Shown here: piece by piece, positions 16,141-45,343 of the stretch | Position numbering within the stretch: position 1 is the stretch's first letter | Layout: each line of letters begins with the position of its first letter | NCBI GenBank assembly: GCA_965223545.1 | Contig: OZ245006.1 | Location: 1,152,001 to 1,216,000 of the forward strand | DNA length: 64,000 bases | Direction of reading: 5' to 3' | Source of the DNA: Planctomycetota bacterium | GTDB lineage: Bacteria > Planctomycetota > UBA1135 > UBA2386 | Notes under the pieces: generated by a model | The model's input: only the letters and a program-made list of their open reading frames with translations | Database searches by the model: none | Told to the model about the DNA's origin: nothing | Position numbers and translations under genes: made by a program

Positions 16141-16916
16141 CTCCCGGATTCTCGCTCCGCGATCTGCTGGCCCAGGTCGCGCGCGGTGACCTCGGCGTCG
16201 ACGATGCGCTGGCCTCGCTGGCGGAGGCCCGCACCGGCGCCGTTTCGGACTTCGCCCGCATCGACCACGACCGGGCCCAGCGCTGCGGCACCCCCGAGGT
16301 CGTGTTCTGCCAGGGCAAGCAGCCGGCGGACGCGGTGGCGATCGCCGCCGAGATCTTGCAGCGCGCGCCGCGCGTGCTGCTGACCCGGGTCGAGGACGCC
16401 CACTGGCGGGCGCTGGCCCAGCGCTGGCCCGACGCGCGGCACGACCCGCGCGCCCGCTGCGCGATCATCGGGCCGCCACCGAGGGCCAGCGGCCTGGTGG
16501 CGGTGCTCGCCGCCGGCACCGCCGATCTGCCGGTCGCCGCCGAGGCCACCGTGACGGCCACGGCGTTGGGGGCCGAAGTGCGCACTTTCCACGACGTCGG
16601 CGTCGCCGGCCTGCACCGGCTGCTGGAACCGCTGGAGGAGATCCGCCGGGCGCGGGCCATCGTCGCCGTCGCCGGCATGGAAGGCGCCTTGCCGTCGGTG
16701 GTCGCCGGTCTGGTGCGCGTGCCGGTCATCGCGGTGCCGACCAGCGTCGGCTACGGCGCCAGCTACGGCGGCCTCGCCGCCCTGCTGGCGATGCTCAACG
16801 CGTGTGCCGCCGGCGTGGCCGTGGTCAACATTGACAACGGCTTCGGCGCCGGCTATCTCGCAGCGCAAATCAACCGTCAGACGCGCGCTGAGGCGCGCCG
16901 CGAAGACCGATCTTGA
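16137..16916 (+). CDS. larB: Nickel-pincer cofactor biosynthesis protein LarB (PurE-like)
   Basis: '[19 protein letters not shown]', '[11 protein letters not shown]', '[10 protein letters not shown]', '[13 protein letters not shown]', 'PTSVGYGA', '[10 protein letters not shown]'. Confidence 0.9.
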
Positions 16917-18049
16917 CCTCCACGACGCGCAAGCCCGCCCGCCTCGTCCTCGAGGACGGCACTGTCCAGCACGGCCGCTCCTTCGGCGCCCCGGTCGACT
17001 CGATCGGTGAGCTGGTGTTCAACACCTCCATCACCGGCTACCAAGAGATCCTCACCGACCCGTCGTACCGCGGGCAGACCGTCTTGTTGACGCAGCCCCA
17101 CATCGGCAACTACGGCGTCAACAGCGAGGACGAGGAGTCGCTCCGCCTCTGGCTGTCGGGCCTGGTGGTGCGCGAGGCGTGCCACCGCGCCAGCAACTTC
17201 CGCGCGGGCGGCGAGCTGTCCGATTACCTGGTGCAACACGGCGTCCCCGGCATCGAAGAAGTCGACACGCGCATGCTCACGCGGCGGGTGCGCACCGGCG
17301 GCGCGCTCCGGGTGCTGATCACCGAGGACATGAGCACACCGGAAGAAGAGCTGCTCGAGCGCGTGCGCAGCGCGCCCTCGATCAGCGACGAGGACCACGT
17401 CAAGGCGGTCACCTTGGACGCGCCGACACCTTGGACCAAGGGCCACGAGTCCCCGTTCTCGGTGCCGGTGCCCGACACCGGCGAAACGCGTTACTCGCTG
17501 GTCGCCTACGACTTCGGCGCCAAGCGCAACATCCTGAGGTCGCTGGTGGCCACCGGCTTCGACGTCACCGTGGTGCCGGCCGACACTCCCGCCGAGGCAG
17601 TGCTCGAACGCAAGCCCGACGGCGTCTTCCTCAGCAACGGCCCGGGTGACCCGGCGGTCGTCGACTACGCGGTGCGCGCCGTCTCACAGCTGGTCGAGCG
17701 GGTGCCGGTGTTCGGCATCTGCCTGGGCCACCAGATTCTCGGTCAGGTGTTCGGCGCCAAGACCTTCAAGATGAAGTTCGGCCACCACGGCGGCAACCAA
17801 CCGGTGATGGACCTGACCACCGAGAAGGTCGAGATCACCTCGCAAAACCACTCGTTCGCCGTCGATCCGGGCGCGCTGCCGGATCGGGTCGAAGTCACCC
17901 ACAAGAACCTCAACGATCAGACCGTAGAGGGGCTGCGGCACGTCGAGCTGCCGGTGTTCTCGGTGCAGTACCACCCCGAGGCGGCTCCGGGCCCACACGA
18001 CTCGCTCTACCTGTTCGAGCGGTTCCGCGACGTCATCCGCGGCGCCTGA
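16913..18049 (+). CDS. carA: Carbamoyl-phosphate synthase small subunit
   Basis: '[21 protein letters not shown]', 'LSNGPGDP', 'GICLGHQ', '[14 protein letters not shown]'; TTG start. Confidence 0.97.
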
Positions 18050-18055
18050 CGCACA

Positions 18056-19702
18056 TCAGCGCATCGCCGCCTGTTCGTGCAGGCGCTTGTCGTAGAACTC
18101 GAGAAAGAACGGGTTCCACCGCCGCTCTTCCCGCGCGAACTGGTCCATGTCGTCGAGCTCTGAGAAGTAGTCCAGCTCCGACCATTCGTCGGGGAAGTCG
18201 ACCGGCGACACCCGCAGCGCGTTCTTGCGCTCCTCCATCAGGATCAGCGGGTGCAACACGACGTCTTCGCCGCTTTCGATCCGCATCAGCACCGACCGGC
18301 TGCGCCGCAGAACGAACACGCGCCGCTCCTCGTTGCGCTTGAACATGGACGCCATGTGCACCGAGAACACGTCGCTCTTGGTGGTCACCAGGTCCATGAA
18401 CTGCTGCTTGATCTCCGGGTTGCCCAAGTTCTCGAACTCCGGCAGCTGCTCGAGGTCGGCGACCTCCTCGAAGATCTTGCGCCGCACCGTGGCCCCCAGG
18501 TCGAAGTCGGCGTAGGTCGCCTCGTCGCCGTAGCCGCCGTCGCCGGTGTCTTCGACCTCCTCGTTGCGGTAGCGCAGGATCGCCTCGATCACGCTGTCGG
18601 GCACCTCGTGCGTCGAGAACAGGCTGCGCAGCACGGGGCGCGACGCGGTGTTGATGTTGATCCGCACGCCGAGCCCGATCGGCTGCTCGGGCGGCGCGTT
18701 GGGGTCGACCGGCTCGGGCACCGGCGGCGCCGCGGCGGCGGGGTCGGCATTGCCGTCGGGACCGGCGGGGTTCTGTCCCGGCACGCCGGGGTCCATCACC
18801 TGCGACGTGTAGACGGTCAGCACCGACTCGAGGCCGGGGATCAAGCGCCCATCGAGCACCTTGTTGTAGAAGATGTCCTCGGTGACCTCGCGCAGCAGCA
18901 GCAAGTCGTCCAGGTGCAGCATCGGCGTCTGCTCGACGCCGAGCTCCTGGTCGCTCTTCAGCGGCGGCCGGGGCATGGCCTCGGTCCGGCCCCGCCCCTC
19001 CATCCACTCGACGATGTAGCGCGCCAGATCGTGGCCGTGGGTCGAGCTCAGGTCGAACTCGGTGCCCTCGCGCATCGCGTCGATCAACCGCACCAGACGC
19101 TCCCGCGAGGCCTCGGCGAACTCGCGATCGGGGCTCAGCAGGGTGAGGATGTTGAACTTGCGGTTCTCGTCCTCGACCCACACGTAGGTGGTGAGGTCGT
19201 CGTCGGCGTAGCCGGTCGGCTCGTACCAAGAATCCTGGCTGCTGTCGGCGGCACTCGCGCCCTCACCGGCACCCTCGCCCTCGCCCTCGCCGGGGAGCCC
19301 GCTCTCCCCACCCGGAGCCATCCCCGGCAGCGCGTTGCCGAGATCCCCCATCCCCGGCGCGGCCCCCAAGCCGGCGCCGCTGCCCGCGGCGCTGGCCATC
19401 AGGTCGTCGACCAGCTGCTCCTCGACCTGGCTGAGCGTGTAGGTCATGTGGTTCTGCATGCGCGCGAGCAGGGCCTCGTTCTCGCCGCTCAAGCGCGCCA
19501 GGCGGGCGGTGACCACCAGCTCGGCGACCAGGACGTAGAGCAGCACGACGAAGATCAGCACCATGATCAGCGCGATGCCGCGCTGGGACCGCGCGACTGC
19601 GCGGCCGGGCATCGGCCGCGGTCTGCAGTCAGCGCCGAGGCGTTCACCCGGCGCCATGGGATCTTGGCTGGTGGTCGTCACGAGCGTGGAGGTCGCCAGC
19701 AT
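18056..19702 (-). CDS. gspK: GspK-like minor pseudopilin (type II secretion protein K)
   Basis: Prepilin site 'SQRG|IALIMVLIFVVLLYVLV', 'EDENRKFNI', 'RININTASRPVLRSL'. The true start may be a downstream Met. Confidence 0.78.
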   Translation of the reverse strand: MLATSTLVTTTSQDPMAPGERLGADCRPRPMPGRAVARSQRGIALIMVLIFVVLLYVLVAELVVTARLARLSGENEALLARMQNHMTYTLSQVEEQLVDDLMASAAGSGAGLGAAPGMGDLGNALPGMAPGGESGLPGEGEGEGAGEGASAADSSQDSWYEPTGYADDDLTTYVWVEDENRKFNILTLLSPDREFAEASRERLVRLIDAMREGTEFDLSSTHGHDLARYIVEWMEGRGRTEAMPRPPLKSDQELGVEQTPMLHLDDLLLLREVTEDIFYNKVLDGRLIPGLESVLTVYTSQVMDPGVPGQNPAGPDGNADPAAAAPPVPEPVDPNAPPEQPIGLGVRININTASRPVLRSLFSTHEVPDSVIEAILRYRNEEVEDTGDGGYGDEATYADFDLGATVRRKIFEEVADLEQLPEFENLGNPEIKQQFMDLVTTKSDVFSVHMASMFKRNEERRVFVLRRSRSVLMRIESGEDVVLHPLILMEERKNALRVSPVDFPDEWSELDYFSELDDMDQFAREERRWNPFFLEFYDKRLHEQAAMR

Positions 19703-19736
19703 ACAGACGGCCGCGCGCGCTTGGGTCTTCCCGGAA

Positions 19737-21233
19737 TCAGTCGCCGCCGCCCAGGCCGTGCAGGCCCTCGGGGCCGAAGAGGATCGTCGGGGTGATGTGG
19801 AACTCGAGCGTGGTCTTGCGGGTCTGCTCGGAGGTCGAGCGGAACAGGAAGCCGAGGATCGGAATGTCTCCGAGGATCGGGAACTTGGTCTCGGTCTGGA
19901 AGGTGCTCTCGCTGACCAGGCCGCCGATCACGGTGGTCTTGCCGTCGGACAAGTGCACCGAGGTCATCGCCTCGCGGCTGGCGATGATCGGCGTCGGCAC
20001 CGGGGACGTGTTGGCGAAGCTGTTGACCGCCGAGACACTGGCGAACACCTGGAGAATCACCGTCTCGGTGCCGGCGATCACCGGCCGGATGTTGAGGTTG
20101 ATGCCGACCGGCTTGAACACGATGCTCGCCGAGACGTTCTGCCCCGACGACGTGATCCGCGCCTGCGGATAGGGCAGGTCGGTGGTCAGGGTCACCGACG
20201 CCAACCCGCCGTTGCGCACGGTCAGGCGCGGGTTGCTGACGACGTCCGCCGCGCCACGCGATTCGAGCACCTGCAGCTGGGCATCGAGTTGCCAGCTGTC
20301 GTGGATGCCCCCGAGCGAGAACAGGCCGCGGCCCTCGCTCGAGCCCGCGCCCACCACCGGCGGCGCCAACGGAAACCGCGAGATCAAGCTCTCGATCAGC
20401 TTGCCGGTCGAGGTGTTGGTCAGGGTCGGGCCGGAGATCGGCTGGCCCTTGTCGTCGCGGAACTGGTCGATGCCGATGCCGAAGAAGCTGTCGCTCGAGT
20501 ACTCGACGACCTTCACGTCGATCTCGATCTGCGGAACGTTGGAGAAGAACAGGTTGAGGGCGGCCTCGAACGCGCGCAGACCGGCAGGCGCCGCGGTCAC
20601 CAGAATCAAGCTGTTGCCCGGCCAAGTCTGCGGCACGACCGCGGTCTGGTTGACCTGGGCACGGATGTCGACGGCCTCGGGGTGCTCGAATCCGTCGAGG
20701 AACAAGAACTCGACCACGTGCTCCCCCAGCTGGCGGCCGAGGATGCTCTGCCCCGCGTGTCCGCCGCCGGCCAGGAAACGCTGCTTGCGCGGCGCTTGGT
20801 CCTGCTGCGGCTCGGTCAGCAAATTGAGCAAGACCTCGCCGGAGCGCTCGGCGATGAAGTACTGCTTGGCCACGCGCCCGTCGGCCCGCACCGAGATGTG
20901 GGAGCCGAACTCGGCGCGGAGCCGGGCGGCTTCGGTGTCCTGCCCAACGCCGTCCTGGGCGCCACCGGGCTCGGGCCACGCCGCCTCGACCGGCACCGGC
21001 CAAGCCGCCGCCACCGCGTCGACGTCGCCCGGCGCGGCGCCGGCGAGCGCCTGGCTCTGCGGATCGACGGTCGCCCGCACGCGGTAGCCCGCGCTGACTG
21101 GCTCGACCGGCACCACTTGGCAGGCTGCCAGCACGCAGCCGCACAACAGCACTGCCAGGCGGTGAGGCACAGCCGCAGCGCGCGGCGCGCCAATTCGGCG
21201 TTCGGGCCCTGCCTGCGCGTCAGGTACCGACAT
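19737..21233 (-). CDS. Secretin (GspD/PilQ superfamily), short lipoprotein form, copy B
   Basis: 'QIEIDVKVVE', 'SNPRLTVRNG', 'GKTTVIGGL', 'PILGDIPILGFLFRST'; lipobox-like 'VLAAC'. Confidence 0.88.
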   Translation of the reverse strand: MSVPDAQAGPERRIGAPRAAAVPHRLAVLLCGCVLAACQVVPVEPVSAGYRVRATVDPQSQALAGAAPGDVDAVAAAWPVPVEAAWPEPGGAQDGVGQDTEAARLRAEFGSHISVRADGRVAKQYFIAERSGEVLLNLLTEPQQDQAPRKQRFLAGGGHAGQSILGRQLGEHVVEFLFLDGFEHPEAVDIRAQVNQTAVVPQTWPGNSLILVTAAPAGLRAFEAALNLFFSNVPQIEIDVKVVEYSSDSFFGIGIDQFRDDKGQPISGPTLTNTSTGKLIESLISRFPLAPPVVGAGSSEGRGLFSLGGIHDSWQLDAQLQVLESRGAADVVSNPRLTVRNGGLASVTLTTDLPYPQARITSSGQNVSASIVFKPVGINLNIRPVIAGTETVILQVFASVSAVNSFANTSPVPTPIIASREAMTSVHLSDGKTTVIGGLVSESTFQTETKFPILGDIPILGFLFRSTSEQTRKTTLEFHITPTILFGPEGLHGLGGGD

Positions 21234-22692
21234 AGCTCCGCGGGCCTTGCACGATGCGAGGCGTGATGTGGAAATCGAGCGTGGTGCGCGACTGCGTCGT
21301 CGAGGTCGAGCGAAACAGATAGCCGAGGATCGGGATGTCGCCGAGGATCGGCACCTGTGCGGTCTGCTCGAACTCCTGGGTACTGACCAGTCCGCCGATC
21401 ACCGTGGTCTTGCCGCTGGCGACGTGTACCGACGTCACCACCTCGCGGTTGGACACGATCGGCGTGTTGACCGGCTGCGTGCTGGCAAAGCTCGTCACCA
21501 CCGAGATGTTGGCGTAGATCTGCAGGATCACCGTCTGCGTGCCGGCGATCACCGGCCGGATGTTGAGCGTCACGCCGACCGGCCGGAACTTGATGTTCGA
21601 GGTCACGTTCTGGCCGGAGGACGAGATGCTGGCGTCCGGGTACGGGAACTCGGTCCGGGTCACGATCGACGCCAAGCCGCCATTGCGCACCGCCAGCCGG
21701 GGGTTGCTGATGATGTCGGCCTCGCCCTGCGCCTCCAGCGCCTGCAGGTTGGCGGTCAGCTGCCAGCTGTCGTGGATACCGCCGAGCGCGACGATGCCGC
21801 GGTCGGCGATGCTGGCACTGCCGACCAGGGGCGCCGCCAGCGGGAACTGCGCCACGATCTCCTGCACCAGCTTGTTGTCGGACAGGTTGGTGAGGGTCGG
21901 TCCCGGCGGCACGGTGCTCACCGCCGGTGAGATGCCGAACGCGAGCGTGTCGCTGGTGCTGTACTCGACGACCCGCACCTCGATCTCGATCTGCGGAATG
22001 CTGCCGAAGAAAAGGTCGAGCGCGTCCTCGAACGCGACCAAACCCGCTTCGGGCGCGGAGACCACGAGGAGGCTGTTGGGCGTGCCGTCCTGCTGCTTCT
22101 CGGGCGCGCCGCTGATCGGCACGTTCTTGGCGGGGTTCGGTCCGCGAATCTGCACGCTGCGCGGCTTCTCGAAGTCGCGGACGAAGAAGATGTCCACCCG
22201 CTGCTCGCCCAACATCTCGGCGAGCACGCAGTCCGCCGCCTCGCCACCGCCGACCGCGACCGGGCCGTAGGTCGCCGGCAGCTTCTCGTGCTCCGGAGTC
22301 GCCAGGTGCTCCGCCGGCGGCCGCAGCAAGTTGAGCAGCATGCGACTGGTCTCGCCGGTGACGAAGTACTGCTTGGTGATGGTGCCGTCGGGAGCGATCA
22401 ACACCGAGGGTCCGAACTTGGCGCGCAGCGCGCTCGCGCGCAGTGGCCCGGTCCGGGCCGGATCCTGCGGACCGCGGTCAGTGGATTGCGCCGGCGGCAC
22501 CGCCGCCGGCGCCTCCCCCCAAACGCGCTCGGCGAGGCCGTGCACGGCGGGCACCGGCGCGTCGACGGTCGCCTCGACGTGATGCCGCAACGCCGGAGCG
22601 GGCGAGACGGTACACCCCGGGTGCAGGCACACACCCAGTGCCACCGCCGTCGGCCATCGACCGCGCCACACCCCGCCCATGGTGCGACCCAT
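21220..22692 (-). CDS. Secretin (GspD/PilQ superfamily), short lipoprotein form, copy A
   Basis: 'QIEIEVRVVE', 'SNPRLAVRNG', 'GKTTVIGGL', 'VPILGDIPILGYLFRST'; possible lipobox ending 'PGC'. Confidence 0.88.
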   Translation of the reverse strand: MGRTMGGVWRGRWPTAVALGVCLHPGCTVSPAPALRHHVEATVDAPVPAVHGLAERVWGEAPAAVPPAQSTDRGPQDPARTGPLRASALRAKFGPSVLIAPDGTITKQYFVTGETSRMLLNLLRPPAEHLATPEHEKLPATYGPVAVGGGEAADCVLAEMLGEQRVDIFFVRDFEKPRSVQIRGPNPAKNVPISGAPEKQQDGTPNSLLVVSAPEAGLVAFEDALDLFFGSIPQIEIEVRVVEYSTSDTLAFGISPAVSTVPPGPTLTNLSDNKLVQEIVAQFPLAAPLVGSASIADRGIVALGGIHDSWQLTANLQALEAQGEADIISNPRLAVRNGGLASIVTRTEFPYPDASISSSGQNVTSNIKFRPVGVTLNIRPVIAGTQTVILQIYANISVVTSFASTQPVNTPIVSNREVVTSVHVASGKTTVIGGLVSTQEFEQTAQVPILGDIPILGYLFRSTSTTQSRTTLDFHITPRIVQGPRSYVGT

Positions 22693-22704
22693 TGGCCGAC
22701 GATG

Positions 22705-23112
22705 TTAGGGCGTGCCGTCGTCGGACTCCAGCTGCTCGACGACTGCCTCGGTCAAGTCCGCGACCTCCAGCCCGCGCGCATCCTTGATGTCGCCGTCGCG
22801 GACGACACAGTCGTGCCCCTCGGCCTCGGCCGCTGCCTTGCAGGCGCGCTGGATGCGCTTGTGCATCTTGGCGATCAGCAGCTCGTAGCGCGCGGATCCG
22901 CGCCGCACCCCGTCGGACTTGATGGTGTCGTACTCCGGTGTCTCCTTCTCCACCTTGTCCATCTCGATGGTCGCCGGCCGCGACGTGTTGGACGCCGAGC
23001 CGTGCAGGACCACGGCACCGCTCTTGGTGCCCACCCCCTGCGCGGGAGCGAGGGCGCAGACCAGCGCCAGGGCCATGCCGATCGACACGATTCGAAAAGT
23101 GGGAGCTAACAT
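22705..23112 (-). CDS. Small exported protein resembling OmpH/Skp without the long coiled-coil arms
   Basis: Signal peptide 'MLAPTFRIVSIGMALALVCALAPA'. 'ATIEMDKVEKETPEY' and 'RIQRACKAAAEAEGHDCVV...DLTEAVVEQL' match the Skp N- and C-terminal core patterns. Confidence 0.55.
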   Translation of the reverse strand: MLAPTFRIVSIGMALALVCALAPAQGVGTKSGAVVLHGSASNTSRPATIEMDKVEKETPEYDTIKSDGVRRGSARYELLIAKMHKRIQRACKAAAEAEGHDCVVRDGDIKDARGLEVADLTEAVVEQLESDDGTP

Positions 23113-23201
23113 GGCGGTCGCTTGGGTTGTCTGGGAGCGGGGGTGAATCCCATCGGACACAGCTGAGCGTCAACAGCATCCGGCGAGGGGCAGAAAACCA
23201 G

Positions 23202-23216
23202 GCAAGATCAGTGCCT
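23202..23216 (-). promoter_or_regulatory. Sigma54 -24/-12 promoter
   Basis: Minus strand reads AGGCAC-TGATC-TTGC (GG-N10-GC; consensus TGGCAC-N5-TTGC), about 90 bp upstream of the mini-Skp start. Confidence 0.72.
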
Positions 23217-23333
23217 CGAGATTCCGCCAATCCCGACCGAACGATGGAACATCTTCCTTAGGAAGGAGTTCTGACTTCCGGCGCGTCTCTGACTTTTTTC
23301 GGTGGCGCATTTCTCGGTGCAGCGGGATCGCGA

Positions 23334-23364
23334 ATTCCGCCACAATCCGCCACGATTCCGCCAC
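23334..23364. promoter_or_regulatory. Tandem A(T/A)TCCGCCAC repeats, candidate upstream activator sequence
   Basis: Copies at 23334-43, 23344-53 and 23355-64, plus ATTCCGCCAA at 23221-30; 10-11 bp period; about 120-150 bp upstream of the -24 box. Confidence 0.5.
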
Positions 23365-23420
23365 CCGCGACTGTCGCGGTGCGATCGGTTCTTGGTTGCG
23401 GCCCCGGCCGCGCTGAGGTT

Positions 23421-26400
23421 TCAGGCTCCGCGCTGTGCACGGAGACGATAGCGCGCGCCGCGGCGGCGACCGACGCGCTCGAGGTCGCCGCGCGCCACGA
23501 GGCCGGCCAGGTCGCGCACGGCGGTCCGCGCGCTGACGCCGGAGAGCTGCATGTACTCGGCGCTGGTCAGCTCACCGCGGCTGCGCACCCACTCGAGTGC
23601 CATGGCGCGCCGCCCCTCGATCCCTGGCCCCGGAGTGGGAGCAGCAGGCTCCGCCGGCTCCTCCGACCCCGCCCCGGTCCGCGGCTCGGCGAGGTCTTGG
23701 CGGCCGGGCGGTCGCAGAGACCGCGACCCCTTCACTGGCGTTCCCTTCACCGACGATCCCGCGGCGGTCGCCCCGAGCGGCGACGGTGCGGGGTCTGCAG
23801 ACCGCCGCGCGTCGACGCGGCGCGCCTCCGGAGACGCAGCGGGCGCTTCCCCGTCCAGCACCCCGAGCAGATCTTCGCGACGGACCTGCGGACCGGTCGC
23901 GAGCACCATCGCGCGCAACACCGTGTTGCGCAGCTCGCGGACGTTGCCCGGCCAATCGTGCTGGAACAGCTCGTCGAGGGCGTCGGGATGGAACTCGGCG
24001 GCACTGGTGTAGCCCGCGCGCACCCCCTCGGCGTGGAACCGCGCCACCAGGTCGGGAATCTCCTGCTTGCGCGCGCGCAGAGGCGGCACGGTGATCACCA
24101 TGCCCTGCAAGCGGTAGTAGAGGTCCTCGCGAAAGCGCCCCTCGGCGACCAGCCGCCGCATGTCGCGGTTGGTCGCGGCGATCACGCGCACGTCGACCGG
24201 CACCGGCTCGAGCCCGCCGACGCGGTCGATCTCGCGCTCCTGCAGGACCCGCAGCAGCTTGACCTGCGTCTGCAGCGAGATCTCGCCGATCTCGTCGAGG
24301 AACACCGTGCCGCCGTCGGCGAGCTCGAACTTGCCCACCTTGGCCGCGGTCGCCCCGGTGAACGCGCCCTTCTCGTGGCCGAACAGCTCGGACTGCAGCA
24401 GACTCTCCGACAGCGCCGCGCAGTGCACCTTGACCAGTGGGCCTGCGGCGCGGCGGCTCATGCGGTGGATCAGCTCGGTGAGGACCTCCTTGCCGGTGCC
24501 GGTCTCGCCTTCCAAGAGCACGGTCAGATCGGTCGGCGCCACGCGCTGCAGGGTGCGCAGCACCGCCTGCATGGCCGGGCTGCGGAACACCACGCCGTGG
24601 CTCTCGAGCTCGGCGACGGCCCGCGGCGCCGCCTCCTCGTCGCTCGGCAGCACCGGGCTGCGCATCGCGTCGAACAAGAACTCGGCGCTGGCGGCGGTCT
24701 CGGGGAAGGCGGCCGCCGCGGTGTCGAAACGCAACCGGCCGCTGCCCTCGAACCCACTCGCGGCCAAGCGTTCGAGCTCTTCGCCGATCCGCGCGCGACA
24801 GCGCTCGGCCTCGGCGGCACCGGTGTCGGGCAGACCCGCCCAGAACTCCGCGTCGGCGGCCCGACCGAGCAGCGCCCCGGCCGGCAGTGCGCGCCGCAGC
24901 ACGGAGGCGACGTGCTCGAGCAACCGGCTGAAGCGGCGCGCCCCCAAGCTCTCGGCGAGGCGCCCGCCTTCGGACAGTGCGACCCCGACCAGCGCCACCG
25001 AGCCCCCCGATTCCCGCGCGCTGGACACCTGCTCCGCGATCCGCCGGCGAAAGTAGTCGGCGACGAACGCCCCGGTGTCGAGGTCTTCGACCGCGTGCCG
25101 ATACAGCCGCGCGTTCTCGAGCGCGACCGCTGCCTGGGCGGCGATCGTGGTCAGCAGCTCGAGGTGCACCGGCGGCGGCGTGTGTGCGTCGAACACCAAC
25201 ACCAGCGCCCCGCGACGGCGCGCGGCGAGCACCAAGGGCAGCACCAGGAGCGACCCCGCACCCGCCCAAAGGGCGTGCGGGGCGTCGCGGTCCAACACCA
25301 CACTGCACGGGCCGACCGCCGCCAGCACCGGCACCAGGTCCGGATCCTCGCGGTCGAGCTCGCCGTCGACCGCCCCGTAGCCCCGCACGGTGCCGCGGTC
25401 CGACTCGCGCAACACGGCGCACACGCGATCGGCATCGCTGTGCTGCGCGCAGAAACCGATCGCCCGGGTGACGATCTCGGCGGGGTCGAGCCGCTCGGTG
25501 ACGTCCTGGATCCCCCGGTTGAGGTGGCGGAGCTCCTGCATGCGGTCCTGCAGGTCATCTGCCATCAGGTTGAACGTGCGCGTCAACCGGCCGAGCTGCC
25601 CCCGCTCATCGCTCCGCACCCGCACGCCGAAGTCGCCGCGCCGCAGCGCCTGGGCGCCCCGTTCCAGCCGCTCGAGCGGCTTGGTGAGCCGCGCGGTGAT
25701 CACCGAAGCCAACAACACGGACAATGCCAGCAGCAGGCAGCCCACCGCGGCGAAGTACTCTCGCACCGGCACCGGCCCCAGGCGCAGCGGAAGCTCGGCT
25801 TGGCGATCCACGTCGACCACGCCCAACAGCGCGCGCGGCGTCTCCTCGAGGTCGCGCAGCACGTCGTAGACCGCCACCCAGGGCGCCGTGTCGGTCTCGT
25901 GTCGCGTGACCGTGGACTGGCCGTGATCGAGCGCCACCGCGAGCGCCTCGCGCCGGGCCTCCATCATCGCCGGCTGCACCGCGGTGTGCTCGAGTTGGCG
26001 CCGGCCCAGATCGGCGTCCGCCACCGCCAGCGGGTAGCCCCTGGTGTCGCAGAGCACGATGCCCCGGCCCGGCGCGAGGCCGCCGAGCAGGCCCTGGTCG
26101 AGGGGCCGCGCCACCGACAGCGAGCATCTGCCGCCGCCGGCCGCCTCGACCTCCCAACGCACGCCGAGCAGCGGGATCCCCCAGGTCACGTAGAACCCCG
26201 GCACCCGCCGCAGCGGGGTCTCCGCCGCGCGCAGGGCGGGATCACCGACGTAGGCGTGCACGCCGACCCCGTCCTCGGCGCTCACCAGCTCGAAGCGCAG
26301 GAAGCCGCCGTCCCACTCGGGCGGCTTCTGGCTGTCCATGATCGCCACCAGAGCATCGTGCAGGGCATCCCAGTCGACGGCGCCGTCCTCGCCGACCGGG

Positions 26401-29174
26401 GCGCCGGCCACCTCGGCGGCGAGCGGCTCGATCCACTGCCTGGCCGAGTCCAGCAGTTCGTTCTGCTCGTCCTGCAGCTGACGGGTCGCCGCCGACATCG
26501 CCTGCTGCATGGTGCCCTGTCGCTGCTCGTCGTGGCCACTCTCCAACACCGACACCAGGACCAGCGACAGGACGACGAGGGGCACGACCGTGCTGACGAT
26601 GAGCACGGCGATCAGCCGCGCGCGCAGGCTGCCGAGCACGCCGAGCAGATCGCCGAACAGCAACAGCAGCAATGGCGCTGACAGCAGGCACAGCACCGCT
26701 CCGAGGCGATGCACCCACCGCCGGTACTCGGTGTGGCCGGGATCGTCGAGGAACGCCGCCAGCACGGCGTCCGACCAGCCCTCGCCGACCAGCGGAAAAT
26801 AGGCCTCGTAGGCCCGCTCCGGCCCGGTGTCGACGGGCCGGAGCTCGAACGGTGTCGCTGCCAGGCGCCGCTCGAGCCCGCGCGGGAGGTTCATCGGCAC
26901 GCGCGCCACCGTGGTCTCTTGCAGCACACCGCCGCGGTAGATGGCGAACTCCGCTCCGCGCATCTGCTCCAGACGCCCGCGGGCCATCGCCACCGAACGG
27001 TTGTCCGCCGTGATCTCCAGCGGCGAATCAGGGGGCTCGACCCGCACCTGCGGCTTGGAGGCGCGGAACGTCGCCGAGCGAAAACGGATCGGGTAGCTCG
27101 CGGTGGTACTGCGCAGGCGAATCTCGCGCACCACCGCCGTGCTGTCGAGCTCGACCTCGTAGCCCAGCGTGATGCGCTGCTCCTGATCCTGGTCCTCCCA
27201 CCGCAACGCGACGCTGGCCGCCGCCGCGCTGGGCTCCGGGTCGATGTTGTGGGCCGCGAGCTCGAAGAACATCGACTCCTGGTGGGTGAAGGCGATGACC
27301 TTCGGCGGCACGGAGTCACCGGCAAAGTGCAGCTCGACCTCGCAGACCCGCTCCCCCACCAGCGGCAACGGCTTGTCGGCGCCGGGGAAGTCGGCGCGGT
27401 AGAACAGAAAGAGCCGCTCGAAGGACTGCGCGCGATCCCGCGCGATCGACAACACCCGCTCTTGACCCGGCGCGAGGAGCACGCCCGCGTCCTCGGGGTA
27501 CGGACCCCGCAAGCCGGTCTCCACGCCGCCCAACGAGGCCTGGCCCAGGTCGATCGCGCGCCCGACCGCGTCGCTCGCCGACGCCGTACTCAGCCCGACC
27601 AAGCCGACACCGTCGGCGCGCAGCGGAGTCAATCCCAGCGACTGCAGCGGCGCGGACAGCTCGAGGCGCACGGTGGTCATGTCGCGCTCGGGATGCCCCA
27701 GCGCAAACGCCGGAATCCACGGCCGACTGATCGGCAGCTCCTCGACGACCGGGTCCTCCTGGCCGGCGTACTGCAGCACGCAGCGCAGCGCCGCCGCCGA
27801 GTTGTCGACGCCGAAGGCCGGCGCCCACAGCACGACGTTGAGCACCGGCCCGCCCAGCGGCTCGCGGAACGCGATCCGCTCGAGCTCGTCGCCGCTCAGC
27901 GGCAGCCAGTACGGCCGCACCGGAAAGCCATCGACGGGGTAGTGGCGGACCGGCAACAGCTCCCCCGCGCCGACCAAGTCGGCGAGGGGCACGTGGGTCA
28001 CCACCTGCTTGCGCGGCACGGACTCGCCCGACAGCAGCCGCAGCAGCGGAGCATCGCGCTCGCCGCCTCGGTAGCTGCCGAGCGTTCCCTGCTCCATCGC
28101 CGGCAGCGCGGCGCGCACCCGCTCGGTCACCAAGCGCAGCTCGGTCTGCCGCGACAGCTCGCGCCCGTGCGTGAGCGCCGCGGGCAGCAGCAAGCCCAAC
28201 AACAGCAACAGACCGCCCGCGACCCGACACCAGCGGCCGAGCGCCGGCCGGCCGCGCACCGCGCGCCGCCCGACCCAGAGAACCACGACCGCGACGACGA
28301 CGGCGAGCAGCGCCCACGCCGCGCGCAGGAAGACGACGGTCCAGGTCGACCACCAGCTCGGCCGACTCTGGCCTGCGGCGGTCAACGGGGGCGCACCCGC
28401 GAAGCGCAACAGGCGCAGCTGTCGCACGTCGTCGACCGGGTTGGTGCCGGTCCAGGTGATGTAGTTGTAGCGGTCCGGATCGTCGCAGTCGTCGACCGCC
28501 AGGTTGAAGGCCACGCGCTCCGTGCCGGGCTCGAAACCGGGCAGACTGTGGAACGGGATCGCGGCCTCGAAGTCGTAGCCGCGTCCCTGACGCTCCAACG
28601 CCGCCACCCGGACTCCGGTCAACGCCGCTCCGCCGTAGTGCGGTGCCTCGCCGACCGCGCCCGACCACGCCACCAGCCCCCACGGCCGGCTGGGGTTGAG
28701 TGGCATCAGGAAGATCTGCAGGTCGTCCGCGTTGAAGCGGTGGCCGGCCTCCTCGCCCGCGTCGTTGTCGGGGTCGACATCCAAGAACAGCTCGACCGCG
28801 TCCCCTTGGTGCCAGTAGGACGACTTGCGCTGTCGCACCAGCTGGTCGTCGCGCACGCTGCCGGCCACGTAGAGGTGCGCCGCGTCGTAGCTCAGCCAGA
28901 AGGTCGCCGACAGGTCCTCGGGGCCGCGCCACGCGCCACCGCGCGAGTGCGCCACCCGGTCGCCGGCAGCGAGCTCCATCTTCCACGCCGCCGACCACTC
29001 ACCGTCGGTCAGATCGCCGTCGATCTGGACCGCCGCCGACTGCCACGGCAATCCTTTGGGCGGGGCCTGTCGCGGACTCTGCGCCGCGCCCTGCGCCGCC
29101 GAGGGGACAGCCAGCCCCAGAGCGAGCAGAGCGCGGGCGGCGCACCGGAACCAGGGAGCGTAGAGTGGATTCAT
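23421..29174 (-). CDS. Giant membrane-anchored sigma54-dependent activator: CBM9-like - TMs/extracytoplasmic domains - HAMP - GAF - degenerate GGDEF - AAA+ - wHTH
   Basis: CBM9/DOMON-like '[10 protein letters not shown]...[12 protein letters not shown]...GDAVELFLD'; about 5 TM segments; HAMP 'LTKPLERL...GDF...[13 protein letters not shown]'; GAF end '[13 protein letters not shown]'; GGDEF remnant 'GRAADAEF'; AAA+ 'GETGTGKE', '[10 protein letters not shown]', 'FLDEIGE', 'WPGNVREL'; DeoR-like '[12 protein letters not shown]'. Confidence 0.88.
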
Positions 29175-29313: not shown

Positions 29314-32298
<2,985 letters not shown>

Positions 32299-33853: not shown

Positions 33854-34516
33854 TCACGCCCAGGCCCGGGCCGAGCGCGCACAGGACTCACAGTGGCCGC
33901 ACGGCTCGGGGCCGCGGTCGTAGCAGCTGAACAGATCGGCCGGCACCAGGCCCTGCCGGCGCGCCACCGCGACCATCTGCCGCTTGTCGAGGTCGGCGGT
34001 CGGGGCGCGCACCTCGACTGCGGCGCGGGTGCCCAGCGCCAGCGCCGCGGTCATCGCTTGGGTGAACTCGACCGTATTGTCCGCGAACGTGGCGGCCTCC
34101 TCTCGATTGAAGCCGGCCAAGACCACCCCGACCCCGAGGGCCTCGGCCCAGGCCGCGCCGACCGACAGCAGCACCACGTTGCGGGCCGGCACCCAAACCG
34201 CAGCGGCGCTCATTCCGTCACCCAGCGCCTCGCGACCTGGGCGCGGCAGCGGCGCCGCGCCCTCGATCAGGGCACTGCCCGCGCTCCGCGCCGCCGCACC
34301 GAGCCAGGGCAGCGATACCGGCTGCCAGCGTAGCCCCCACCGCGATGCCAATCGCTCGGCGGCGCGCGCCTCGGCGGCGGCGGCGCGCTGGCCGTAGTCT
34401 GCGGTGACCACCATCTCGACTTCGCCGCCGCCCTCTCGCCACAGGAGCAGGGCAACGGCCGAGTCCAACCCGCCCGACAGCAACGCCACCGCCCGGCGAT
34501 CGCGCGCCGGGTTCAC
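33854..34516 (-). CDS. queC: 7-cyano-7-deazaguanine synthase QueC family
   Basis: PP-loop 'LLSGGLDS', 'DYGQRA', 'VWVPARN', Zn site 'SCY....PCGHCESC'. Confidence 0.88.
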   Translation of the reverse strand: MNPARDRRAVALLSGGLDSAVALLLWREGGGEVEMVVTADYGQRAAAAEARAAERLASRWGLRWQPVSLPWLGAAARSAGSALIEGAAPLPRPGREALGDGMSAAAVWVPARNVVLLSVGAAWAEALGVGVVLAGFNREEAATFADNTVEFTQAMTAALALGTRAAVEVRAPTADLDKRQMVAVARRQGLVPADLFSCYDRGPEPCGHCESCARSARAWA

Positions 34517-37401
34517 GGCAGCGACACGGACACCGAGATGGCGGACCCGCGCGCGTAGGCGACCTGCCCGCGGCGCACTTCCTCGAACACCAGGGCCTGC
34601 GCCGACATTCGCGTCGAGAAGAAGACGTGCGCCTCACCGACCACGCTCCAGGCGCCCGCGACCAGCCCGGTGAGCGGGGCCGGCAGCTGCGGCAGCTGCA
34701 CCGTCCGCGCCCCGAGCGCGCCGTCCTCATCCAGCCGCCAGAGGCTCCAGCGCCGGCCGCCGGCATCGGTCACCGTGAGCTCCTGCCACCCCAGCAGCTG
34801 GCCCAGGGCGGTCGGGTCGAGCCGGTCCTGGTAGGTGATCGCGGGCTCGCCGCTGCTGCTCGACGGCGCGGTCACCGATGGAATCCCGATCGGCGGCAGC
34901 GTCGGCACGGTCTGTCCGGTCTGCACGTCGACCAGCCGCCGGTGGCGCGACAGATTGCCGCTCTGGTCGACCGCCTCGGTCGACACCATCAGCAGCGGCG
35001 TGAACGGCGTGAGATTGAGGGCCGTCGTCAACGAGTAGGTCGCGTTGACGTCGTAGACGCCACCTCCGGCACCGGTCGCAAAACCGACGCCGAACAAGCT
35101 GGTGCCGCCGAACCCGGCGAGACTGCCCATCAACCGCACCACCGGCGGCTCGAGCAGATTGGCGAGATCGAGTCCCGTCGCGGTGCCGAAGTCGACGGTA
35201 TACGGAGCCGCCAGATTGAGCGTCGTCAGCGTCGCCGGCAGCAGTGCCAGCGCGGCGGACGCAGTCGCTCCGCTGTCGACCGGCCCCAACGGCATCGTGG
35301 GCGTCAGTCCGTCCGGCCCGCACAGCTGGCATGCGTGGTGGGCGAACGTGGGCAAGGACATCGGCTCGAAGCGGCCGGCAAACGCGTTGACCACCGCCAG
35401 CCGATTGGCGCGGATGGCCGTGCTCGGAATCGCCGTCGGTTGGCCCGCGCTCGTGGCCAGCGCCTGCTGGGTCGGATCGTCGATCAGATTGCAGCCGATC
35501 AACGCGGTGTCGCCGACGCTGGCGGCGAACGCGACCGCACCATCCAACGTCGCCGTACCGCCACCGATCGGGCGCAACGGCAGAGAGACGAACGCCGAAC
35601 CCGAGTCCAGCAGGGTGCGCACGTCGTAGCCCGGGGCCACGACGGTCATCGTGTGGCTGGCCGCGGACAGTCCGGTGAACGACGCGCGCCCGTTGGCCGC
35701 CGTCGTCGCCGTGCGCTGCCCCACCGCCGGCGCCATCGGCAGCCCGGGCTCGACGATGACGACCGCGCCCGGCACCGCCGCCATCGTCACCGCGTCGTAC
35801 GCCTCGACGGTGAGACTGCCACCCGCGACCGAGCCCCGCATCACGCCCCGGGGCACGATGCGGCCGGTGACTGCGCTGGCGGCGAGGTTGCCGGCGGCGT
35901 CGGTGATCGACAGGGTGTAGTCCAGCGCCAACACGTTGCGGCCCAGGTCGATCGGCGTCATCACGAACTGGCCGGCGTCGTTGGCGGCGAACATCGGCAC
36001 CATCGCCCCGTTTGCGGTCAGCGTGGCCTCGCCGAGTCGCTCGGACGCCAAGCCGTAGAAGACCGCGGACTCCTGATCCGAGAACAGGTCGAGCTGCGCG
36101 ACGCCACCCGCCGGCGCACCGGCGCCGACCACCGTCGGCAGCACTGTGTCCTGCAGCGTCGGGTTGCCACCCGCCGACGTCACGAAGCCGGAGCTTCGCC
36201 TGCCTCGCACCAGCTCGACCGCCAGGGTGAGCGGACCGTCATCGAACCGCGGCTGCGCCAGCGTGCCGAGCGCGCCGGCGAAGTCGAGAGTGACCGTCTG
36301 CGCGCCATCGGCAGTCAGCGTCGCGTCGCGCTCGACGAACGCGACGTCGTCGGGATCCTCGGTATCGGAGTCCAGTCCGTAGATCCGGCCGACGAGCCGA
36401 TCGTCGGCGCGCGCCGACGGATCGAGGACGACGTCGACCGCGAGGTTGTCCAGATTCGCGCGGTTGACCCGGTGCTCGAAGCCGGCGGTGAAGTTGCCGA
36501 CCGAGACGCTCTGCGGCGCGAGGTGGGCCAGAGTGGAAAACCGCGAGAACGGCCGGCGGCCACCGAACTGCAGCACACCACCGGCGCCGAACAGGATGCT
36601 GCTGTCGACGAACAGCTCGTAGTCGCGGGCGCCTTCCAGCGCGCTGTCCGGATCGAACCGGAGTACGCGGGTGTCGGGATCGACACCGTTGGTGAACGGA
36701 AAGGTCGCATCGCCGGAGACGACGGTGCCGAACGCGTCGCGCAGCTCGGTGCCGGCCAGCGCGGAATCGCCGTCCGGCGCCTTGTCGAACACGACGAAGA
36801 CCGGGGTCTCCCGGCTCTGGTCGACGGCGGCGTCGCGGGGCAGCACCTCGACGATGCGGCCGTCCTCGTCGGCGGGATCCTGGTCGACGAAGAAGCTGGC
36901 GACCGGGTCCGGCTCGGTGCCGCCATAGGTGACCCCGTCGACGTCGCGCACCGACGGATCGACCAGCACCTCGTAGGCGGTGTCGACCGGCAGCGCCGTC
37001 ACCGGTCGCAGCAACACGACGGTGTCGCCGAGCAAGAACTCGTAGGTCACCGGCACCGGCTGCCCGCTGTCGGCATCCACCAGCTGCACGCCACCAGTGG
37101 TCGGTCCGGACCCGGGACCCGGCACGCCGGGCAGCTGCGCGGCGACCTCGACGGTGTCGCGGTTGACGGATTCGCTGAAGGACACGACCACCGGGGTCGA
37201 TGCGGCAATCGCCGATCCGGACGGCACGGCCGCGACCACGCGCGGCCGGGCATCCGCCACGATGCCCCCCGCCGGCATCACCTGCACGTTGGTGCTGCCG
37301 GCCCCCGTGCCACCACCGCCGTAGACGCCGACGACGTTGTCGCAACCGGTGGCGGTCAGGAGAAGGGCGGCAAAGATGACCGGGAGAGAGCTGCGCATCA
37401 T
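34513..37401 (-). CDS. Large lipoprotein with Ig-like (Big_5/SbsA-type) and carboxypeptidase-regulatory-like domains
   Basis: Lipobox 'LTATGC'; 'PVVVSFSESVN...VLLRP...L...T.YEV.V...VRDVDG' Ig-like repeats; 'ITDAAGN'. Confidence 0.7.
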   Translation of the reverse strand: MMRSSLPVIFAALLLTATGCDNVVGVYGGGGTGAGSTNVQVMPAGGIVADARPRVVAAVPSGSAIAASTPVVVSFSESVNRDTVEVAAQLPGVPGPGSGPTTGGVQLVDADSGQPVPVTYEFLLGDTVVLLRPVTALPVDTAYEVLVDPSVRDVDGVTYGGTEPDPVASFFVDQDPADEDGRIVEVLPRDAAVDQSRETPVFVVFDKAPDGDSALAGTELRDAFGTVVSGDATFPFTNGVDPDTRVLRFDPDSALEGARDYELFVDSSILFGAGGVLQFGGRRPFSRFSTLAHLAPQSVSVGNFTAGFEHRVNRANLDNLAVDVVLDPSARADDRLVGRIYGLDSDTEDPDDVAFVERDATLTADGAQTVTLDFAGALGTLAQPRFDDGPLTLAVELVRGRRSSGFVTSAGGNPTLQDTVLPTVVGAGAPAGGVAQLDLFSDQESAVFYGLASERLGEATLTANGAMVPMFAANDAGQFVMTPIDLGRNVLALDYTLSITDAAGNLAASAVTGRIVPRGVMRGSVAGGSLTVEAYDAVTMAAVPGAVVIVEPGLPMAPAVGQRTATTAANGRASFTGLSAASHTMTVVAPGYDVRTLLDSGSAFVSLPLRPIGGGTATLDGAVAFAASVGDTALIGCNLIDDPTQQALATSAGQPTAIPSTAIRANRLAVVNAFAGRFEPMSLPTFAHHACQLCGPDGLTPTMPLGPVDSGATASAALALLPATLTTLNLAAPYTVDFGTATGLDLANLLEPPVVRLMGSLAGFGGTSLFGVGFATGAGGGVYDVNATYSLTTALNLTPFTPLLMVSTEAVDQSGNLSRHRRLVDVQTGQTVPTLPPIGIPSVTAPSSSSGEPAITYQDRLDPTALGQLLGWQELTVTDAGGRRWSLWRLDEDGALGARTVQLPQLPAPLTGLVAGAWSVVGEAHVFFSTRMSAQALVFEEVRRGQVAYARGSAISVSVSLP

Positions 37402-37516
37402 GGTGGTCGGCCCGCCGGCAGGCCGGGGCGCGTGGGAAGAGAGATCGAGCCGGGGCGCCCTGCGCGTGCGCCAGACGTTCCCGGCCACTCCGCCGCAGAC
37501 GAAGCCGGCGCCGATC

Positions 37517-38131
37517 TTATTCCCGCGGACCCGAATCTCCCACCGCGGCGGCGCCGATCAGCTGGTCGAGGGCCATTCCGACGCCGCGCGACAGGCCCCG
37601 CACGACGTCCTCGGGCAGATCGCCGTCGACGGGCACGTCGCCGCCGAACTCGCCATCGACGACCACTCGGCCCGAGCGCACCTCGGTCAGGGTCAACCGC
37701 AGCACGGCACGCGCCACCCAGCGGCCGTCCAGGGCGGTCTGCTGCAGCTCCAGCACCCGGGCGCGCAACGACCAGTCCGCCGCACGCGCATCGACCGCGG
37801 CGACCACCGCGCCAAAGACCCCGGCTCGCTCGAACCCGGTGAGCAAGGCGTCGTGCACCACCTCCTCGACCGGCGCCACCCAGCGGTGGAACCGATAGGG
37901 CTGCAGCCCCACCGGCCCGTTGGCGACCTGCAGTCCGTCGCCGCGAAGATGCGGCGCGACGCCGACGCGATCCAGGACCAGGGTGCCCCCCAGGGGCTGT
38001 AGCCCATCGACCGCTGGCCGGGGCGGCAACGCCAGCCGGTAGTAGCGCTCGTCGGGGACGGACACGCCACCGCACGCCGCGCACGCCAGCAGCGCGGCCA
38101 TGGCCCGAACCACCGCCGTCGTCGCCCGCAT
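37517..38131 (-). CDS. ABC-type transport auxiliary lipoprotein (PqiC-like)
   Basis: Lipobox 'LACAAC', 'RYYRL', 'PYRFHRWVAP', 'L.ARVLELQQ'; TGATG-coupled to the MCE gene. Confidence 0.78.
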   Translation of the reverse strand: MRATTAVVRAMAALLACAACGGVSVPDERYYRLALPPRPAVDGLQPLGGTLVLDRVGVAPHLRGDGLQVANGPVGLQPYRFHRWVAPVEEVVHDALLTGFERAGVFGAVVAAVDARAADWSLRARVLELQQTALDGRWVARAVLRLTLTEVRSGRVVVDGEFGGDVPVDGDLPEDVVRGLSRGVGMALDQLIGAAAVGDSGPRE

Positions 38132-45006: not shown

Positions 45007-45343
45007 GAAGCGGAGCTGGGCACGGACACGGGATGAGCGCGCCGGGCGCACGGGCGAATCGACGATGCCAGCGGCAGGGTGGTCCGGGCTCCCTCGGCCG
45101 CAGGCCGTCGCTTTCTACTTCGACGCCCACCCCCGCATCAACTGGAGTCCAAAGCCGCGGGGGGTTCTCGAAAGTGATTCGCCCGCGTAACAACTAGGGC
45201 GGACGGGCGGCACGGCCGCTGCCATGGCGGCCGCGGCACGCTTGGTGCACCGCGCCGGGGTGGCTTAGAATCCCCGCGCCGAACCCCTCTCGGCGGCCAA
45301 GAGGCGCGGCGTGTCGAGCACGCCCGCGAGTCACAGCGACATC

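Follow-up and report, generated by a model that had tools for sequence, protein, structure and literature searches.

A short secretin paired with a miniature Skp-fold protein in Planctomycetota: a putative sigma54-controlled accessory pore beside a gspK gene with a putative promoter of its own

Why does a planctomycete genome that already holds a type II secretion system (T2SS) with its own GspD carry, at a separate locus, a very large sigma54 activator, a miniature Skp-like protein (mini-Skp), two short secretins and a gspK gene in one row? The question is raised by a window of 64,000 nt, by which we mean the whole stretch of DNA analyzed here: positions 1,152,001-1,216,000 of contig OZ245006.1 in the Planctomycetota bacterium assembly GCA_965223545.1. 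Its minus strand has five open reading frames (ORFs) in the order activator, mini-Skp, secretin A, secretin B and gspK (Table 1), and the ORF calls bear out the five co-directional genes noted in a first-pass annotation, which had gathered them all into a single inducible module. The best reading is instead of two regulatory units: a predicted sigma54 unit of activator, mini-Skp and secretin, and a gspK gene under a putative promoter of the extracytoplasmic function (ECF) sigma type. On balance, we lean towards a first unit that, once induced, supplies an accessory pore built of secretin and partnered by a Skp-fold protein, apart from the T2SS platform, and towards a separate supply of gspK to the T2SS.

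The linkage of these genes in relatives, which the first-pass annotation had singled out for checking, proved to be conserved from activator through Skp and secretin to gspK across 54 short-secretin loci from 60 relatives (the order-level set); the named relatives are mostly uncultured Planctomycetota, and in all counts over relatives the genomes share ancestry and are not independent samples. The mini-Skp gene lies directly upstream of the short secretin at 50 of the 54 loci, the other four being at contig edges (50/50 testable), and the activator is present at 39 and absent from 10, with five at edges. In a phylum-wide sample of 301 genomes, mini-Skp is found in 120 and the activator in 53, of which 52 bear mini-Skp, an overlap inflated by shared ancestry. 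Of 40 further mini-Skp loci picked from this sample, mostly from other families, 36 have a secretin as the very next gene, while gspK is near in only eight and pnp in 16. The invariant core is therefore Skp plus secretin.

The mini-Skp assignment, made in the first-pass annotation from the letters of the sequence, is upheld by a predicted model (pLDDT 92.3), whose top three matches in a fold search are all Skp proteins with Z-scores of 7.6 (rmsd 3.3, 86 residues aligned), 6.6 and 6.1, the next falling to 3.8; the second of these matches is the type IX structure 8gl8. At the sequence level the OmpH match (E 0.0035) is below the cut-off, and a profile recovers 1sg2 with E 9e-5. The mature protein has about 108-113 amino acids (aa) as against 141 for 1sg2, and the long helical tentacles of Skp are missing. 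A 1:1 complex prediction for secretin A and mini-Skp scored 0.01, with the controls left unfolded too, and counts neither way. The mini-Skp gene is itself tandemly duplicated at one locus (L022:9598-10622) and in genomes of family f68 (e.g., L223).

The other half of the core is a reduced secretin. Secretins A and B are 48% identical and match the Secretin family with E-values of 6e-40 and 2e-39, with TIGR02517 scores of 151 and 147 bits against a cut-off of 351. Their best sequence matches are T2SS GspD proteins, to which the short-secretin profile aligns only over residues ~250-600, viz., N3 and the core, and a median mature length of 466 leaves no room for the N0-N2 domains or the C-terminal S domain of GspD. 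Past the last strand, the tail has at most 30 residues in 75 of 81 short secretins (median 13), and a lipobox-like Cys is found in 85 of 121, a count without a control set. As Pfam overlooks N0 even in the genome's own GspD, the argument for the missing N0-N2 rests on length and alignment. An ESM Atlas search with the secretin N region returned only Secretin_N leads scoring below 0.9, and a scan of genome contigs with a single secretin as the query gave no match. GspC docks on the secretin N0 domain. The earlier view of the secretin as a gate that plugs into the T2SS thus fares poorly, there being no room for N0-N2 and the T2SS having its own GspD of 761 aa.

Nor can the twin arrangement, which the first-pass annotation took as defining, be regarded as such: one secretin is present in 51 of the 54 relatives and two in only three, so the twin is a local duplication. 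A tree from a quick, unfinished search on a 61-row subsample indicates that the window's twin arose once, in common with G009 (96% support), and that the other tandem pairs (families f5, f62, f69 and f72) each group with themselves. An ancestral twin was accordingly rejected. Tandem duplication has occurred five times in the sample, and may give mixed rings. The genome holds six secretins, and at a separate locus (L159, G000:C1:7076000-7092000) two bearing tetratricopeptide repeats (TPR) stand on either side of a large TPR protein and of genes that look ExbB/ExbD-like.

The regulator of the first unit is a one-component bacterial enhancer-binding protein (bEBP) with a Sigma54_activat match of E 5e-69, further Pfam/NCBIfam matches to CBM9_1, HAMP and GAF, and weak ones to GGDEF and a helix-turn-helix (HTH); its predicted model has a pLDDT of 83.7. 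A signal peptide is followed by a CBM9-fold domain, two transmembrane (TM) segments, a beta-rich domain of ~480 aa, two further TM segments, a dCache-fold domain, a last TM segment and HAMP, and then by GAF, a degenerate GGDEF-like domain, AAA+ and a winged HTH. An active GGDEF was rejected, as no GGDEF motif lies within the region. The GAFTGA motif stands at residue 1603; among 36 orthologous frames it is found in 31, GSFTGA in two and neither in three, which belong to family f2, with L058 showing GAFSGA. In one relative (L227, G233) the activator is split into two open frames of 638 and 1394 aa, with the repeats and box intact.

Both the -24/-12 box and the phased repeats proposed in the first-pass annotation are confirmed upstream of mini-Skp. 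The TGGCGGAWT repeat has five matches in the window where 0.76 are expected (0 of 100 shuffles reach five), and the only cluster of four copies within 220 bases on the whole 8.07-Mb contig is the mini-Skp promoter. The pattern GG-N8-TTGC precedes mini-Skp at 62 of 72 activator-adjacent loci (reverse strand, 6/72; shuffles, 12.9) and at three of 12 activator-less loci (reverse, 3; shuffles, 1.6). With a matrix seeded with the window motif, repeats of the window type cluster in relatives 80-170 bases upstream, past an AT-rich spacer. Of the 40 further loci, 35 entered a test of such clusters (four were dropped as lacking a secretin and one as too short): clusters of at least two repeats stand at the Skp promoter in 7 of 7 loci with an adjacent activator, a count that is partly circular since the pattern was widened after these loci had been seen, in 6 of 8 with the activator elsewhere in the genome, and in 0 of 20 with none. 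Hence, the unlinked-activator group is the fair test. Further, rpoN, whose presence in the genome had been left to be checked, is represented by two genes. The distribution of the box and the way the repeats follow the activator make it very likely that the activator drives the downstream sigma54 promoter, much as the first-pass annotation had supposed. A genome-wide search for other sigma54 targets gave none that was convincing (in the first matrix scan the window's own box, at 9.1 bits, fell below the 10-bit threshold), and the downstream regions of unlinked activators showed no recurring target among those listed. Four other loci (L198, L200, L208 and L225) have in common a near-palindrome of the TTGACTAAC(T/C)AGT type 400-700 bases upstream of mini-Skp, followed in three of them by a similar GAACGGG(T/C)GG(G)ACG stretch and accompanied in L200 by a small divergent HTH-like gene; this region is possibly a repressor site and small RNA.

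For gspK, a promoter motif overlooked in the first-pass annotation points elsewhere. GGAAG-N16/17-CGTC is found before gspK in 72 of 94 cases, or 78 with a relaxed pattern, as against none on the reverse strand and 0.4 in shuffles. The matrix derived from these upstream motifs, used at a threshold of 10 bits, recovers it before the gspL-linked ECF sigma gene in 19 of 21 cases (reverse, 0), before the gspC-like gene in 20 of 22 (two of 24 being skipped) and before gspD in 9 of 14 (reverse, 1). Directly before gspL it is found in 0 of 21, and mini-Skp and the activator have it upstream in only 1 of 86 and 2 of 48 cases, respectively. The motif precedes other genes too, and may mark a broad envelope regulon. 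ECF sigma factors usually autoregulate (PMC7826278); given this and the motif before the sigma gene, the gspL-linked ECF sigma is likely to drive gspK, the gspC-like gene, gspD and its own operon. At five loci, L093, L127, L141, L143 and L180 (the last counted as one stretch with L086), which are not assumed to be separate losses, the cassette is absent and pnp adjoins gspK; the motif stands before gspK at four of these five, and one cassette-less genome, G032, keeps gspD-J and gspL-M. The placement of gspK inside the sigma54-induced module is therefore not supported: the gene has its own putative ECF-type promoter, common to other T2SS genes, and outlasts the loss of the cassette. Moreover, more than 1 kb of genes is inserted between secretin and gspK at 17 of 83 loci. 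At L185 (G039), gspK runs in the opposite direction to the activator-Skp-secretin cassette, the two facing each other.

As to identity, the GspK match (E 1e-14) is below the cut-off, NF037980 gives 54.5 bits against a cut-off of 130, and a profile search reaches 5vtm_X with E 2e-4; all 94 GspK-like proteins have the prepilin Gly, a hydrophobic helix and no Glu at +5 (L in 64, M in 29, F in one). A DNA-binding, ComEA-like tip was considered and rejected, the helix-hairpin-helix (HhH) match being weak and the protein acidic (95 D+E vs 51 K+R).

The T2SS that this GspK likely serves is dispersed. As the first-pass annotation observed, no gspE/F/L/M or major pseudopilin gene adjoins the cassette, whose flanks are carA and pnp; the family matches map to separate loci of the genome, settling the question of location that it had raised. 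A gspD-E-F-G-H-I-J cluster (C1:690314-698522) ends with gspJ and contains no K-like gene, nor do the gspJ-containing regions of 20 relatives (0/21 in all; gspK profile, best E about 1). The gspK profile has its sole match in this genome in the window, and across 61 genomes gspK is present in 60, at one locus each and in two pieces in three of them. On the strength of this sole copy and of the absence from gspJ regions, we infer a dispersed T2SS completed by the window's gspK. An ECF sigma, a probable anti-sigma, a GspL-like and a GspM-sized gene form one run (L156:3305-7368; G000:C1:3430304-3434367), the last two spanning C1:3431774-3434367, and the ECF sigma adjoins gspL at 21 of 21 loci. Pfam T2SSC found no GspC; a protein of GspC architecture, with a TM segment and a C-terminal PDZ domain that gives weak PDZ matches (L272:189-1469; G000:C1:393027-394307), is the candidate, and is present in 28 of 41 genomes. 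A separate pilus-like locus (L158, G000:C1:1836000-1855000) combines a PilM-like gene and several pilin-like genes with a TPR protein and a frame of 2164 aa that matches GspK/HhH weakly.

Put together, these parts suggest the following course of events. The CBM9-fold, central and dCache domains of the activator would all be periplasmic, given five hydrophobic segments conserved in relatives, and a signal reaching them would leave the dCache domain by way of the last TM segment, HAMP and GAF and so arrive at the AAA+ domain. With its HTH on the TGGCGGAAT repeats, the activator would open the sigma54 promoter, and mini-Skp and the short secretin would be made. The latter would reach the outer membrane through its own lipid anchor, with mini-Skp as a dedicated assembly or structural partner, and build an extra outer-membrane pore, probably without docking to the T2SS motor; GspK, made from the ECF-type promoter, would join the ordinary dispersed T2SS. 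A glycan, either imported or derived from the envelope, is a plausible signal that stops a little short of probable. Large polymers or folded periplasmic proteins as the cargo are a bet, and cargo and signal are the least certain points of this proposal.

Several observations pull against this account. At the order-level loci gspK lies downstream of the short secretin in 50 of 54, with one inverted and three at edges (50/51 testable), and the stretch from secretin B to gspK yielded no terminator call. Read-through from the sigma54 promoter into gspK is therefore likely, and a functional tie of gspK to the secretin cassette is possible. The gspD promoter of this genome reaches only 6.1 bits with the ECF-type matrix. 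On the sigma54 side, the activator is not seen in about half of the Skp-bearing genomes, so that inducibility is not universal, and two of the three boxed loci among the 12 activator-less ones belong to sister genomes (L106 and L134) that keep a well-placed box without a full-length activator, which weakens the case for strict dependence on it. Among the further loci the box pattern occurs in 7 of 7 with an adjacent activator, in only 2 of 8 with the activator elsewhere and in as many as 6 of 20 with none (expected 1.4), variant boxes in the second group having been read by eye only afterwards. The shared ancestry of the genomes and the circularity in the repeat count belong on the same side of the scale.

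The points on gspK also speak for a different account, in which the induced secretin is an alternative gate for the T2SS or a type IV pilus, replacing or mixing with GspD rings while read-through raises GspK and the secreted set changes. The recurrent adjacency of gspK (extending to 8 of the 40 further loci), the lack of a called terminator and the GspD best matches all favor it, and a precedent exists in Pseudomonas orphan gate genes that lie outside the main locus (PMC6567927). However, the part of the secretin that would dock GspC is the one missing, and the unit includes no GspC partner. The T2SS has its own GspD and persists when the cassette is lost, gspK has a putative promoter of its own, and pnp adjacency (16/40) exceeds that of gspK (8/40), synteny being open to simple inertia. 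We consider such a gate unlikely.

The sensor domains bear on a second alternative, which is a sharper form of the accessory-pore reading: one particular glycan would be bound by the activator's CBM9-fold and central domains, and that polymer would be imported or exported by the secretin. The CBM9 fold is well matched (Z 19.3, with Z 17.6 to 4jpq and 13.8 and 12.8 to the haem-binding relatives 2ivf_C and 7b04_C), its region matching in the PDB with a profile and not with a single sequence. In TmCBM9-2 the sugar is clamped between Trp71 and Trp175 (PMC8280721). By profile alignment, the equivalents of Trp71, Glu77 and Gln96 are kept in 20, 31 and 26 of 33 activators. The two-aromatic clamp is incomplete, however: the window activator keeps the Trp71 equivalent and has lost that of Trp175, a position which, in a sequence alignment of the loop, is V in 12, T in five and G, L or F in two each of the 33, with W outside the five commonest residues. 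Arg98 and Gln151 are replaced in the same profile alignment, and three family f2 activators have no CBM9 domain at all. The central beta-rich region yields only weak matches, to CBM8 (Z 8.3) and, for the model, to tandem CBM22 (E 1e-3), with no usable match in the ESM Atlas. Exopolymer secretion is known to need secretins (PMC12475490); yet the genes past the Skp-secretin pair differ between lineages, with no recurring glycan-utilization or biosynthesis genes. A specific polysaccharide conduit is rather improbable.

Very unlikely, finally, is an envelope-stress response in which damage to the envelope, once sensed by the activator, is answered with a general holdase of the Skp kind together with a pore or plug, without any specific Skp-secretin partnership: the Skp fold, the membrane-embedded sensor and a mini-Skp copy without a secretin at 4 of the 40 further loci would suit it, but the arms (helices 37-45 and 52-76, i.e., 9 and 25 residues) are too short for a client cavity, the median net charge is 0, the order with one secretin family is near-invariant, and the genome has a single clear target promoter.

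In its boldest form, the accessory-pore reading would give a branch of Planctomycetota a secretin channel without a motor, structurally partnered by its own dedicated miniature Skp. A sigma54 sensor contained in a single five-pass protein would read periplasmic glycans and open the channel on demand, making it an inducible wide passage for polymers across the outer membrane that no catalogued secretin system covers. Taken as a whole, this is somewhat unlikely.

Table 1. Features of the locus and its neighbors (positions within the window)
Feature	Position	Strand	Basis or remarks
One-component membrane-spanning sigma54 activator (bEBP), 1917 aa	23421..29174	-	Pfam/NCBIfam, predicted model, topology
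CBM9/DOMON-fold domain	28395..29066	-	Z 19.3, rmsd (root-mean-square deviation) 2.7 over 185 residues to 1i82
dCache-fold periplasmic domain (predicted)	25791..26549	-	Z 12.9 to LuxQ 3c38, and many dCache sensors; right before last TM/HAMP
AAA+ activator domain	23829..24590	-	Walker A, GAFTGA, Walker B and arginine-finger motifs
Three phased TGGCGGAWT repeats, predicted upstream activator sites	23334..23363	-	At 23355, 23344 and 23334; spacing 11, 10
Fourth TGGCGGAWT copy	23221..23229	-	Just upstream of -24 element; position recurs in relatives
Sigma54 -24/-12 promoter of mini-Skp	23201..23216	-	GG 23215-14, GC 23203-02; predicted start near 23190
Mini-Skp, 135 aa	22705..23112	-	Signal peptide and Skp fold, shortened helical arms; profile, predicted model, fold search
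Short secretin A, 490 aa	21220..22692	-	N-terminal Cys in non-canonical lipobox, linker, one N3-like domain, secretin domain, very short C-terminal tail
Short secretin B, 498 aa	19737..21233	-	Tandem paralogue; lipobox LAAC
ECF-sigma-type gspK promoter GGAAG-N17-CGTC	19706..19731	-	Motif; directly before gspK
GspK-like minor pseudopilin	18056..19702	-	Start codon 19702, 19657 or 19612; prepilin Gly 19579-19577
pnp (polynucleotide phosphorylase)	29314..32298	-	Conserved upstream neighbor; outside the system
carA	16913..18049	+	Convergent; downstream boundary

Beyond the system, the window's polynucleotide phosphorylase (29314-32298) has a long Arg-Asp repeat and an acidic C-terminal tail, and long pnp frames are found in many relatives too. 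A large Big_5/Ig-domain protein (34513-37526, minus strand), with an ECF-type motif of 19.1 bits upstream, is the first in the gene run towards pnp; Big_5/Ig-like genes also lie upstream of pnp in several relatives. The stretch 37517-63042 carries Mla-like ATP-binding cassette (ABC) genes, a one-module nonribosomal peptide synthetase (41170-45051), a GH9 cellulase (53235-55409) and a DDE transposase.

All the parts derive from known folds; what appears to be new is the pairing of Skp with secretin, together with the truncated forms and the architecture of the sensor. We found no description of the activator-Skp-secretin arrangement in a literature search over article texts, few of them from subscription journals; the ECF promoter tables of PMC7826278 may list this ECF group. 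An undescribed secretin/Skp-fold pairing with testable promoters, present in a large share of the sampled Planctomycetota (mini-Skp in 120/301), is accompanied by a one-component transmembrane sigma54 activator of very large size, for which a binding site is predicted. Should the pore operate with no T2SS or pilus motor, it would widen the role of secretins and offer a candidate macromolecule route in this phylum. As a by-product, a scattered T2SS can be reassembled through a common ECF-type promoter, with gspC-like and gspM-like genes assigned where Pfam fails.

Among the closest known systems is XphA/XqhA of Pseudomonas aeruginosa, in which an additional secretin gene lies away from the main T2SS locus and answers to environmental control of its own; XqhA is accompanied by a GspC-like protein and takes part in a hybrid Xcp machine (PMC6567927), whereas the window offers a Skp-fold partner and no room for N0-N2. 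The locus does not fit a plug-in gate of that type, the unit having no GspC-like gene and the one candidate found lying at C1:393027-394307 with an ECF motif. HxcQ is a full T2SS GspD. Like HxcQ-type liposecretins, the short secretin would carry a lipoprotein Cys at its N terminus, here a putative one, and it lacks a C-terminal tail for pilotin binding, while itself consisting of N3 and the core only. A precedent for the movement of non-protein polymers comes from cyanobacteria and myxobacteria, whose secretin slime nozzles are full-length PilQ/GspD proteins (PMC12475490), whereas the secretin here is short and its cargo putative. The Skp partner has a parallel in SkpA of the type IX Extended Translocon, where a Skp scaffold belongs to a channel for export through the outer membrane instead of working as a general chaperone (PMC10994853); SkpA keeps full tentacles and binds the N terminus of SprA, in contrast to the stubby arms, secretin channel and putative binding of mini-Skp. 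The T2SS of Legionella pneumophila, spread over five loci (PMC6617341), parallels the dispersal here into gspD-J, gspK, gspL-M and the gspC-like gene; unlike in Legionella, the pieces have a common ECF-type promoter motif, and an ECF sigma gene heads the gspL-M operon. The activator, in turn, resembles bEBPs of the NifA/NorR type in its intact AAA+ motifs, its GAF domain, the target promoter beside its gene and the upstream repeats ~145-175 bases before the predicted start, and differs from them in a predicted periplasmic/membrane sensor of ~1150 residues with five TM segments and in a DeoR/DIP2311-like winged HTH in place of the Fis-type domain.

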